Virus record (IMG/VR): IMGVR_UViG_3300026549_000036 | From: a virus | Taxonomy: Duplodnaviria; Caudoviricetes | DNA: 64,000 bases | Strand: one strand, 5' to 3' | In this document: piece by piece, positions 7,870 through 33,570 of the stretch | How positions within the stretch are numbered: position 1 is the first letter of the stretch | How the letters are laid out: each line of letters opens with the position of its first letter | Position numbers and translations under genes: made by a program | The notes under the pieces: generated by a model | The model's input: the letters and a program-made list of their open reading frames with translations, nothing else | What the model was told of the DNA's origin: nothing | The model's database searches: none

Positions 7870-8340
7870 ATGAATAAGTTAATTATTGACGATATGCCAG
7901 AATTGTATGCTAAATTGAAGCCATACATTGAGTATCTTGAAGGTCTTGGATTTTATCCTTCCAGAACAGATTTCAGTTATTTCAATCCTGGAGATGACGA
8001 TAACTATGAATACTTCAATGGTTGGAACTATAAGCGTCAAGATACAACTGCGTCAGATGGTTATCGTGAAGACTGGGTTGTGGATTTGGCAAGCTATACA
8101 AAAGAACCAAAGGTTGAAGTTTATACTCACAAAATCATAAAAGCACCGAAGTATTATTTCTGTGGAAAAGATACTGGTTATCCATATATCATCCAGAACC
8201 CAAATGAACAGGGTCATTATGACTCAAAGATTGTGGATAACATAAAAGACTTCAAAAAAGAAATTGGTAAGTATTTGAAGTTGATTAAAACATTTCAAGA
8301 AAAGGTAAAGAAGCATGAATTGGAAAAAGACTTCACCTAG
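7870..8340 (+). CDS. DF-tail family protein
   Basis: Ends KVKKHELEKDFT. Confidence 0.75.
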   Translation: MNKLIIDDMPELYAKLKPYIEYLEGLGFYPSRTDFSYFNPGDDDNYEYFNGWNYKRQDTTASDGYREDWVVDLASYTKEPKVEVYTHKIIKAPKYYFCGKDTGYPYIIQNPNEQGHYDSKIVDNIKDFKKEIGKYLKLIKTFQEKVKKHELEKDFT

Positions 8341-8785
8341 CATTATTGCGAAATATGACAATGGTAATCACCTGGTTACTTTGTTCTCAGATGGAACAAA
8401 GATAAAGGAAACTATTAACCCTGACGATGACCATTTCACATACGAATTCCCAGAATCGTTTGATTTGAAAATCACAGATTACTGTGATGCTGGTTGTGCT
8501 TATTGCTTCGTTCCTGGTACAATAGTTAAAACTGAATTGGGAAATGAAAAAATTGAAACTTTAAAAATTGGAGATTATGTTTGGTCTTATAATTGTGAAA
8601 CCAATCAAAAAGAATTAAAACAAATTAAAAAACTATATAAACATGATGTAAATGAAAAAATTTATAAGTTTACATTAGAAAATGGAAAAGTATTTTGTTG
8701 TACGAGTAACCATAAAATTTACACTAATAATGGTGTAAAAATGGCGAAAGATATAATAGCTGAAGATGAACTTCTTAATTTCTAA
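8315..8785 (+). CDS. Radical SAM protein N-extein + split intein N-fragment
   Basis: ...ITDYCDAGCAY|CFVPGT (intein Cys1 at 8504); block B TSNH; stop after a 93-aa IntN. Confidence 0.9.
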   Translation: MNWKKTSPSIIAKYDNGNHLVTLFSDGTKIKETINPDDDHFTYEFPESFDLKITDYCDAGCAYCFVPGTIVKTELGNEKIETLKIGDYVWSYNCETNQKELKQIKKLYKHDVNEKIYKFTLENGKVFCCTSNHKIYTNNGVKMAKDIIAEDELLNF

Positions 8786-8789
8786 TTAT

Positions 8790-8797
8790 TATAAATA
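8790..8797 (+). promoter_or_regulatory. T4-type late promoter
   Basis: TATAAATA upstream of the HNH gene. Confidence 0.7.
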
Positions 8798-8909
8798 TAA
8801 TAATAGGATAGGTGGAAGCATCTTATTAAGAATTTAATAATACCAACAGATGATACTATAAAGGCTTCCACCTTATCGTCTGTTGGTATTTTTTGTTAGG
8901 TGGAAGCTA

Positions 8910-9935
8910 ATGAAATTAAAAATAATAAATTGTAAAATTTGTAATAAAGAATTTAGGACAAAATCAAAAGACATTTGTTACGATTGTGCTTATAAGAATA
9001 CATTTTTTGATAAAAACTGTATAAAATGTGGTAAACCTTTTAAAGGAACTAGATTACAAAAACAATGTGAAGAATGTAGAACTAATGCTCATAAAAATTC
9101 TACATTTAAAAATACACATACAGTTACTTGTATATGTAAAACTTGTGGAAAAATTATTAGTAAAACTACTAAAGTTAATTGTGGAAAAATAAAAAATGAT
9201 GTAATTTGTAATGATAGAAACTGTAAAGAATGTAAATCTAAAATTTTATCTGAACATTTAAAATTGAAAAATCCTAATAAATTATCTAAACAGTTTAATA
9301 GTATAGATGATTATAATAAATCAAAAATAGAACAACAAGTTTTAAAACATAAAAAGATTCTTAACGAAAATTTTGAATTATTGGAAGAACTGCGTAAAAT
9401 TGACCCTACTGCTGATTTTAAATATGAAGACCCATATATAGAAAAACAATCTTTACTTATGAGATTAAACAATCCTATGTTTAATGATGAAACAAAACTT
9501 CAAGCAAAACAAACTTTAAAAGAAAGAATAGAAAGGGGTTTAATCGTAATATCAGCAAAAAACAGAAAAACTTATACTGGTTGTAGCAGATCAATACAAA
9601 ATTATTTAAGAATTGAACTTTCAAAATGGAAACATAAGTTATTAACTGAACATAATTATACTTGTGAACTGTGTGGTAAAACTGGTGGGGATTTACATAT
9701 ACATCATACAACCCCATTTAGAGAAATTTTAAAAATGATTTGTGATGAATTAAATCTTAAATATGAAGATCTAAAACAAATAAAACATTTAGACGAAAAC
9801 TATTGCAAAATAAAGGAAAAATTACTAAATTATCATTATACACACGAATGCGGTATTGTAGTTTGCCCCAGTTGTCATTCTAAAATTGATGAACATTATC
9901 ACTTGGAGAAAAAATATGAAAATACGGAAAATTGA
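8910..9935 (+). mobile_element. Free-standing HNH homing endonuclease gene between the split-intein halves
   Basis: Multiple N-terminal CxxC zinc ribbons; C-terminal YTCELCG...HIHH...CPSCH; very AT-rich. Confidence 0.85.
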
Positions 9936-10794
9936 AACTTTTGATTATGAAGGACCCGTTTATAATATAGAAGTTGAACAAAATCATAATTATTATGTTG
10001 AAGATGTATTAGTATCAAACTGTCACGAAAATTCTACAAAGAAAGGCGAACACGCAGATCTTAAATTGTTAATGCCAATGTTGCGTTCTTGTTTACCAGG
10101 AACTGAAATTGCTATCGGTGGTGGAAATGCTTTGGAACATCCATCTTTGTGGGTTTTGGTCGGTAAAATGAAAGAAAATGGACTGATTCCCTCTATCACA
10201 GTTAACCAAAAACATTTACAGAAATACTTTCAGTTAATCAAAACCCTGGACTTCGCAGGAATTGGTGTTTCCTTGACAGATCCTTCAAACAAGAAGGATA
10301 TGCGTTTGATTGACGAACTGGGCAGTAACGTCGTAATACACACGATTGCTGGCGTTTTAACTCCCAAGGACTATTCTGTATTGAGAGATAGAAAAGTTCT
10401 AATTCTCGGTTACAAGGATATCAGACGCGGACATGATAATTTGTCTAAACATACTGCTGAAATTCAAGCAAACATTGAACAACTGAAAAAAGATTTGCCA
10501 ATGATTGCTAAAAACGCAAGAGCACTTTCTTTTGATTGTTTGGCTCTAAAGCAGTTGAATCCAAAGGAATGTTTGGGAATGACTGATGAAGAATTCGCAA
10601 ACATTTATCAGGGCGATGACTACGAAATGTTTGACAAAGACGGAAATTTGACAGTTGGAACAATGTTTATTGACGCTGTTAAAATGGAAATTGCTAGAAG
10701 TAGTACTGCTCAAATGGATAAAAGATATAAATTCACTGGTAGTGAAAAGATAAGTGAACTGTTAGCAAAAAGCTGCGAAGGTTATGGAAAATAA
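9916..10794 (+). CDS. Split intein C-fragment + radical SAM C-extein
   Basis: MKIRKIE...VYNIEVEQNHNYYVEDVLVSN|CHENS; GGG motif EIAIGGGN; GGAG RBS. Confidence 0.9.
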   Translation: MKIRKIETFDYEGPVYNIEVEQNHNYYVEDVLVSNCHENSTKKGEHADLKLLMPMLRSCLPGTEIAIGGGNALEHPSLWVLVGKMKENGLIPSITVNQKHLQKYFQLIKTLDFAGIGVSLTDPSNKKDMRLIDELGSNVVIHTIAGVLTPKDYSVLRDRKVLILGYKDIRRGHDNLSKHTAEIQANIEQLKKDLPMIAKNARALSFDCLALKQLNPKECLGMTDEEFANIYQGDDYEMFDKDGNLTVGTMFIDAVKMEIARSSTAQMDKRYKFTGSEKISELLAKSCEGYGK

Positions 10795-31914: not shown

Positions 31915-32448
31915 AATTCTGTTGCTAGGGATTTCCCTAGCTGTTTCTGCGAGTGCAGTAGAAAGGTCAAACACTTTTTTCTTATTGCCCTCGTCAATTC
32001 AGCAACAAATTATTATATTTGAAAATAAGAAGCCAATAAAACCGCGAATGTTCTATATCACCCCAGATGTGTATGGAATTTTTCACGAATACTTCTATGA
32101 TACTAAAACTGAAAAATGTTGGTGGAATAAATACAAACTAACAATTTATTTTTAAGTTGGAAGTATGAACCAATACGAATACCAGTACGAATTAAGAAAA
32201 TTATTACAGTTCCTATACGATGCTATGATTAAGAAAGACGAAACTAGAATAAAGGAATTGAAAGATAAAATAGAATTTTTGTATAGAACACAAGGTTTAA
32301 ATGATGAATAGTTTATAAATATAATGATAAATTCGTGGTAGTCTTTATCATTAAATATAGAGTTTAATAAACCTTAATTAAGGTTAATGCTATACAAGGA
32401 CTACCACAATACTTGTATAGCATTTTTTTCATAATATGTGGTAGTCTT

Positions 32449-33570
32449 ATGAATAAATTTGAAATTATAGATTTAGCTGTAAATGATGCAGAAGTTTTTA
32501 AAACTAAATGCGAAAATAAAGAAATAAGAAATGTAAAAATAAGAATACATTGTATAGAATGTAATAAAATTGTTGAAAAATGGCCTGATGTAAGAAGATT
32601 TCATAATTGGTTTTATTGTCCTAAATGTTCTACTAAATTATATCGTATTAGAACTTGGGGTTCATTAGACAAATATAATGAACACATGAAAAAAGAAAGA
32701 GAAAATACATTAATTGCTAAATATGGTTCACTTAAAAAAGCACAAGAAATAAGATTAGAAAATCAAAGAAAATATAATAGAAAAGTTCATGGATGTGATT
32801 ATTATTTTCAAACAACTGAATTTAAAAATAAATTAGAAAATAAATTAACTGAAATGAATAATGGAATAAAAACAACTAATGTTTCACAAATAAAAGAAAT
32901 TCGTAATAAAATTAAAGAAACAAATAAAGAAAAATATGGCTGTGAAGAATATATGCAAAGTTTAGATTTTAAAAATAAAACTATTGCAACTTCAAAAAGT
33001 AAATATAATACAGATAGTCCAAATTCAGCAAAAATAGTTAAAAAGCATAAAGAAGATTCTGTATTTTTGAAATATGGTGTTACTAATGTTAATCAATTAA
33101 AAGAAGTAAGAGAAAAAATTTATAAAACTTGTATGGAAAGATATGGTAAATTATGGAATACTTATAAATACAAGTACGATAATATAAAATTTGATAGTGG
33201 TTGGGAATTAATTTATTATATTTGGTTAAAAGACCACGATATAAATTTTAAATACCATCCAAAAATAAATTTTGATTACATTGATGAAAATGGTAAAAAT
33301 TCAAAATATGAACCAGATTTTTTAATAGATAACAAATTATATGAAATAAAAGGAGACCATTTCTTCAATGAACAAAAACAATTAATAAATCCATACGATA
33401 AAAATAAACCATTATGTTTAAAAAAACAACAATGTATGATAGACAATGGCGTTAAAATTTTAACAAGTATTGATTTGAAAGATAGTTTTGATTATTTTAA
33501 TACATTAAATTTAAATTTATCTAGTTTTAGAGTGAAAAGAGGAAAAAATGAAAATAACATTATTAAATGA
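32449..33570 (+). mobile_element. Putative homing endonuclease (KYG repeats + C-terminal PD-(D/E)XK domain)
   Basis: KETNKEKYG-type repeats; FDSGWE...YEPDF...YEIKG; late promoter TATAAATA at 32314; adjacent to thyX. Confidence 0.8.

Follow-up and report, generated by a model that had tools for sequence, protein, structure and literature searches.

We propose, with moderate confidence, that the stretch at 32314-32451 of the phage DNA analysed here (64,000 nucleotides in all, hereafter the window) encodes a structured RNA leader at the 5' end of a free-standing homing endonuclease gene, and that this leader is a variant of the T-even type of control in which a late promoter and RNA structure act together. 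Most likely, the leader throttles the nuclease. A homing endonuclease has to be produced without harm to the phage genes that it invades, and this is known to be achieved with a late promoter placed inside a hairpin that masks the ribosome site. The present leader would add a new design principle, in which hairpin loops present the words, one copy serves as a decoy for the start site, and the antisense loop is part of a terminator.

Leader anatomy

The elements of this leader, which we call locus 2, are the following.

32314-32321, + strand: T4-type late-promoter motif TATAAATA, adjoining hairpin 1 (read from the sequence)
32322-32353, + strand: hairpin 1, a 10-bp stem (arms 32322-32331 and 32344-32353) with a 12-nt loop
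32335-32343, + strand: word X, GTGGTAGTC, inside the hairpin-1 loop, a copy of the start-site word
32370-32385, + strand: small linker hairpin of 6 bp with a 4-nt loop
32386-32424, + strand (to 32429 with the T run): hairpin 2, a 13-bp stem (arms 32386-32398 and 32412-32424) with a 13-nt loop
32399-32407, + strand: X', the exact complement of word X, at the beginning of the hairpin-2 loop
32423-32429, + strand: run of 7 T, including the final two bases of the hairpin-2 3' arm
32438-32446, + strand: third copy of word X, 2 nt upstream of the ATG at 32449
32428-32453, + strand: weak third hairpin in the start region (RNAfold), with the third copy of X in its loop and the AUG within its 3' arm

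The first-pass annotation had described the promoter motif, the two main hairpins and the words, and on direct reading these proved correct to the base; the display of the third copy in the loop of a weak hairpin that holds the AUG goes beyond it. The hairpins are recovered by RNAfold, and the leader has z = -3.7 against dinucleotide shuffles. In the minimum-energy folds of read-through RNA, the promoter motif pairs with bases 3' of hairpin 1 to give a lower stem.

A parallel leader precedes the HNH endonuclease gene of the same window (locus 1).

8790-8912, + strand: the whole locus-1 leader
8790-8797, + strand: TATAAATA
8801-8828, + strand: hairpin 1
8810-8819, + strand: 10-nt word AGGTGGAAGC in hairpin 1
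8839-8890, + strand: hairpin 2, a 17-bp stem with an 18-nt loop, then 6 T
8864-8873, + strand: complement of AGGTGGAAGC, in hairpin 2
8898-8907, + strand: start-site copy of AGGTGGAAGC
8910, + strand: ATG of the HNH gene

The existence of this second leader had been claimed for 8801-8907, and direct reading bears it out: the order of the elements is that of locus 2 and the word is different. RNAfold recovers both of its hairpins (z = -4.8 against dinucleotide shuffles), and the linker hairpin of locus 2 is absent. At both loci the hairpin-1 loop consists of almost nothing but the word, and the hairpin-2 loop has 4-8 spare bases.

A third endonuclease leader, at 58832-58952 on the + strand, has its elements in a different arrangement. 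Hairpin 1 carries a loop complementary to the ribosome site, the loops of hairpins 2 and 3 are mutually complementary over 7 nt, and TATAAATA lies between these two hairpins, so that late RNA would lack both antisense elements. Its nuclease is 37% identical to that of locus 2, and from the promoter through the next hairpin it resembles the locus-1 leader.

The genes behind the leaders

The window comes from a very distant, uncultured T4-like phage, which encodes RNA ligase and ThyX and whose DNA polymerase is about 30% identical to cyanophage polymerases. The genes that concern us here are listed below.

8315-8785 and 9889-10794: split-intein halves of a radical SAM gene
8910-9935, + strand: HEG1, HNH homing endonuclease gene, between the two halves of the radical SAM gene
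32449-33570, + strand: HEG2, free-standing homing endonuclease gene of 373 aa, overlapping the start of thyX by 4 nt
33567-34253: thyX

HEG1 matches an HNH PHROG, and HEG2 carries DUF7487 repeats and a C-terminal PD-(D/E)XK-type domain, with a T7 endonuclease I domain in its relatives. The earlier assignment of the two nucleases to different families, HNH and PD-(D/E)XK, therefore holds.

Only locus 1 lies within a fractured gene; locus 2 does not. The radical SAM gene is broken inside its CxxxCxxC motif by a naturally split intein, its N-terminal half matching Intein_splicing and Hint and its C-terminal half starting with the C-terminal segment of the intein. There is an overlap of 47 nt between the HNH gene and the downstream half, and the same arrangement of split radical SAM gene, intein and HNH gene is present in five related sequences (L013-L016 and L018). 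At least three different phage backgrounds (L001, L008, L011 and the window) have a DUF7487 endonuclease gene (45-78% identity) that stands immediately before thyX and overlaps its start, and thyX thus looks like a recurrent homing target of this family.

Departure from chance

Triples of a 9-mer word, its complement and the word again within 220 nt occur five times in the window, against 0.26 per shuffled window, and the two leaders are the only ones which are intergenic and have hairpins. The triples at about 21535 and 24218 lie in coding sequence, have no hairpins and were set aside as chance occurrences. A strict descriptor was then defined, which asks for a word in a hairpin loop, for its complement in the loop of a hairpin with 5 T behind it, and for the word once more at a start codon. 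A descriptor search had been suggested as a check of the element, and over the window it returned exactly two matches, i.e., the two leaders; on both strands of 100 shuffled windows it returned none. There were also no matches in 150 kb of phage T4 with 13 of the T4 endonuclease genes. For the window's genes in general, 8-mers that complement the start region from up to 150 nt upstream occurred at chance level (4 against 4.1 expected), which makes the theme specific to the endonuclease leaders.

The promoter motif is itself unevenly distributed. Over the whole window TATAAATA occurs 10 times on the + strand, where 4.0 copies are expected, and is absent from the - strand, where 4.6 are expected. 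By the reading of the ORF map, 6 of the 10 + strand copies are intergenic. Directly upstream of the endonuclease genes, at 32314 and 8790, the motif is a predicted promoter, and it is kept in all orthologous leaders.

The element could have belonged to an RNA family already described, which the first-pass annotation had named as grounds for dropping it. A scan of the whole window against Rfam (release 15) at gathering thresholds gave no match, and in E-value mode both leaders returned just microRNA-hairpin noise far below threshold. Literature searches did not find a published description of a kissing-loop or pseudoknot leader on an endonuclease gene. Searches of the phage collection found no close DNA relatives and, at the protein level, distant DUF7487 matches only and nothing for the HNH gene; neither nuclease gave a match in IMG/VR. 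Matches to the word pattern in IMG/VR and in species genomes fell in unrelated, mostly G+C-rich DNA and were rejected as chance.

In their 5' halves the leaders of locus 1 and locus 2 resemble each other significantly: the comparison scores 34, and the best of 500 shuffles reaches 32. The leaders are probably diverged copies of one module and not independent inventions, and would now serve unrelated nuclease families. A covariance model built on locus 1 detected neither locus 2 nor the third leader (E about 1).

Orthologous leaders of the HNH gene

Homologues of the HNH nuclease, 46-76% identical, lie in the same fractured-gene setting (L013-L016 and L018). Their leaders all retain the promoter motif, hairpins 1 and 2 with the T run, and the word in three copies. 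A covariance model from five leaders finds the most distant one, that of L018, at E about 1e-11. We aligned six leaders in total, i.e., that of the window and these five (nucleases 46-100% identical). Across hairpins 1 and 2, 99.3% of the alignment cells are paired, and both sides have changed in 10 of the 26 pairs, a level of covariation reached in none of 500 shuffles, and slid controls give at most one such pair; the alignment was fitted to the model and so leans towards structure. The stem sequences of L018 are entirely different and still pair. Several positions follow paths of C-G to U.G to U-A on the + strand, and these G.U intermediates argue for selection on RNA of that strand.

The words behave in the opposite manner to the stems. 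In the helices which the word could form with its complement, 9 of the 10 pairs never vary among the HNH-gene leaders, and the least conserved of the three copies is that at the start site (L014, L015). Loop words being invariant within each nuclease family, there is no covariation for the loop-loop or loop-start-site pairings. The first-pass annotation had seen natural covariation between the two loci of the window; two loci alone are weak grounds for this, and it is the six orthologous leaders that put covariation of the stems to a proper test.

Invariant words would also suit DNA-binding sites, and the three copies could be operators to which the endonuclease, or another phage protein, binds for autorepression. 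Autorepression of I-TevI at its late promoter is documented (PMC2988022), and in each of the two nuclease families an invariant word peculiar to that family occurs in both orientations beside the promoter. However, the copies always lie in the loops of hairpins that covary through one-strand G.U intermediates, none of which a DNA site needs, and one copy always covers the start region. We also sought either word, with up to one mismatch, in the flanking target genes and the rest of the window and found no similar word. The operator reading fits the leaders poorly and we regard it as very improbable.

Relatives of the locus-2 leader

Near-identical copies of locus 2 are present in several assemblies. 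In one sequence (L004, 2536-3699) a 97%-identical copy of HEG2 is broken into two ORFs of 140 and 232 aa; in its leader the final base of the start-site word is altered and the T run is shorter. This may be the decay of a dead cassette.

The leader is not found on every relative of the nuclease. In L001-L003 a 78%-identical nuclease occupies the identical site, between a 48-aa ORF and thyX, without any of the leader elements; the leader there is just 26 nt long (in L001, 2975-3000, against 32312-32448 of the window) and has no hairpins and no words. The leader is therefore dispensable or replaceable. Among nucleases 45-48% identical to HEG2, two located upstream of thyX (L008, L011) and one before a DNA ligase gene (L012) were likewise found to have no such leader.

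A metagenome scan for the three words recovered three contigs (L114-L116) in which a nuclease 35% identical to HEG2 lies in another genomic context. Here the stems of both hairpins are fully replaced, with 6 T after hairpin 2, and the loop sequences are those of locus 2, including flanking bases that were outside the search pattern. The word overlaps a GTG start codon. These leaders also have a fourth, complementary copy of the word upstream of the late promoter (L114 8981-9140; minus strand in L115 and L116), which with its flanks gives a helix of ~22 bp with the Shine-Dalgarno sequence and the GTG in read-through RNA, enclosing the other hairpins. This helix follows classical T4 logic, in which the late transcript is without the 5' strand of the inhibitory helix.

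That the two loci carry a shared RNA element under selection, as had been proposed, is supported, mostly on grounds which the first-pass annotation did not have, namely the covariation among orthologous leaders and the recurrence in L114-L116.

Proposed mechanism

That the promoter and the terminator are active, that the loops pair and which way control runs are inferences from the sequence, and on this basis we propose the following course of events. Transcripts would either enter from the upstream genes or begin about 6 nt after TATAAATA, and would fold into three hairpins. Hairpin 2, which resembles an intrinsic terminator, would stop most transcription into the nuclease gene. In the RNA that reads through, the hairpin-2 loop could pair with the start region, giving a closed state, or with the mimic in hairpin 1, giving an open one. 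Read-through RNA from upstream would have its start region closed by the antisense loop. RNA from the late promoter would be without the lower part of the hairpin-1 domain, and its mimic would be freer to capture the antisense loop; the start region would then be left open, and the nuclease translated late in infection and at a low level.

Hairpin 2 has one clear feature of a terminator at both loci, a stable stem with G+C pairs directly before a U run (13 bp and 7 T at locus 2, 17 bp and 6 T at locus 1). Its loops of 13 and 18 nt are beyond the 3-8 nt typical of intrinsic terminators, and it is missing from the list given by a simple terminator scan because that scan allows loops of 3-8 nt only. 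The T run is retained in every leader-bearing relative of both loci (shortened in L004).

A T run kept in every orthologue would also be expected if the unit from promoter to terminator were a separate small RNA gene, with a product of about 95-105 nt acting in trans on the endonuclease mRNA. Most late transcripts would then end at the T run, and the antisense loop of this short RNA would block the start region of the rarer full-length mRNA, and the hairpin-1 word would bind the antisense loop of that mRNA as a second point of contact. The unit does have the outline of a complete small-RNA gene, with TATAAATA, two hairpins and a T run, and the shared words would permit the short RNA to contact the mRNA leader at two such points. 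However, pairing in cis should win, because the mRNA's antisense loop lies 30-40 nt from its target, and the mimic inside the short RNA would mask the antisense loop. We consider a trans-acting RNA unlikely.

The duplexes of word and complement are worth -15 to -20 kcal/mol each. In all 7 leaders tested, the domain made up of hairpin 1 and the lower stem formed by TATAAATA loses stability, from about -10 kcal/mol to about -4, if the RNA begins at the predicted late start; at locus 1, this start removes just 2 of the 9 hairpin-1 pairs. By an estimate combining accessibility and duplex energies, pairing of the loop with the mimic and pairing with the start site differ by no more than about 2 kcal/mol, and the balance does not move consistently from read-through to late RNA. 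Nested alternative folds do shift in the expected direction, partly by construction. Since this shift is partly built in and accessibility shows none, the temporal logic is not established. The position of the late promoter, which is upstream of the antisense loop, unlike in the classical design, also counts against the explanation we favour.

The geometry of the loops sets further bounds. As the hairpin-1 loop has little beyond the word, the closed hairpin could make just a partial kissing contact; the spare bases of hairpin 2 would allow a full helix with a linear partner. At the start region, the local hairpin with the AUG in its 3' arm is weak and the strong complement, of 9-10 nt, sits in the hairpin-2 loop, so that masking of the start site would need a pseudoknot or refolding. 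In L018 the minimum-energy structure is the refolded helix, of 20 bp.

With energetics that give no clear bias between the two pairings, and with L001 doing without the leader, it may be asked whether there is a switch at all. Hairpin 2 could simply be a terminator that insulates the gene from the one upstream, hairpin 1 a 5' stabiliser of the late mRNA, and the repeated word a relic of a duplicated start region that is retained for its Shine-Dalgarno bases; the bases after the hairpin-1 word of locus 2 resemble those after the start-site word, which does suggest a duplication. Such an account leaves unexplained the exact complement in the hairpin-2 loop, which is found in two nuclease families with different words, and the invariance of the loop word and its complement while both stems turn over completely. 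Furthermore, Shine-Dalgarno function cannot conserve the hairpin-1 word, because there is no start codon behind it. We judge the absence of a switch to be quite improbable, though less so than binding of a protein to DNA operators.

Beyond the structured leader proposed at the outset, we entertain, more tentatively, a stronger version. The leader could be a self-contained RNA toggle of three partners, in which the mimic and the start site compete for a terminator-borne antisense loop, and it could travel as a portable cassette and represent a widespread, undescribed class of kissing-loop leaders. If this were true, a single loop would couple transcription termination to translational gating, and the module would have been exchanged between unrelated families of homing endonucleases.

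Significance and comparison with known systems

As the layout is kept across nucleases as low as 35-46% identical and in two unrelated families, the leader is a good candidate for a new cis-regulatory RNA family. It is a compact natural model for the competition between kissing-loop and pseudoknot pairing, and is of help in recognising and delimiting endonuclease cassettes in phage genomes from metagenomes.

A late promoter combined with a start-site hairpin is found at I-TevI, I-TevII, I-TevIII, segB, Aeh1 mobE and the T4 genes e and soc (PMC2988022, PMC3014915). At the T-even endonuclease genes and at T4 e and soc, a hairpin at the ribosome site masks the early transcripts, and the late transcripts are without its 5' strand (PMC2988022, PMC3014915). 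The present leader has in common with these TATAAATA directly before a homing endonuclease gene, predicted RNA structure at the ribosome-binding region, a gene located inside an early or middle transcription unit, and the presumed purpose of late, low nuclease expression. It differs in how the start region is paired. In the T-even leaders a simple hairpin has the start region as one of its strands, and RNA from the late promoter is without the other, whereas here the antisense strand is carried in the loop of a hairpin of its own, which is terminator-like and follows the promoter, and a third copy, the mimic of the start site, is displayed in another loop. At the window loci, the predicted late RNA consequently keeps the antisense word and loses only the lower stem of the hairpin-1 domain.

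Hairpins with TATAAATA have also been described for endonucleases in fractured genes (Dassa et al. 2009, PMC2677866). Locus 1 has the arrangement of that study: a free-standing endonuclease gene stands between split-intein halves, its 3' end overlaps the downstream half, and its leader has a hairpin with TATAAATA, which at locus 1 pairs in the lower stem of hairpin 1. The leaders described there (Dassa et al. 2009, PMC2677866) are single hairpins in which two motifs pair in the stem, with no loop-displayed complementary words and no terminator. Compared with the examples of Dassa et al. 2009, the radical SAM host gene and the HNH nuclease of locus 1 differ. On the best reading, our leader belongs to the known T-even kind and its layout is new.

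Control of a start site over a distance by means of loops is well known from the activator pseudoknot of IncI-alpha/IncB repZ, the kissing complexes of ColE1 and R1 and the start-site masking of MS2. In these systems a hairpin loop pairs with a distant segment by the ribosome-binding site, or with another loop, and so decides whether translation takes place. The plasmid and RNA-phage systems rely on an antisense RNA that is a molecule of its own, or on a pseudoknot that activates, whereas in the leader described here all three partners lie in one RNA, and two of the three are identical competitors.
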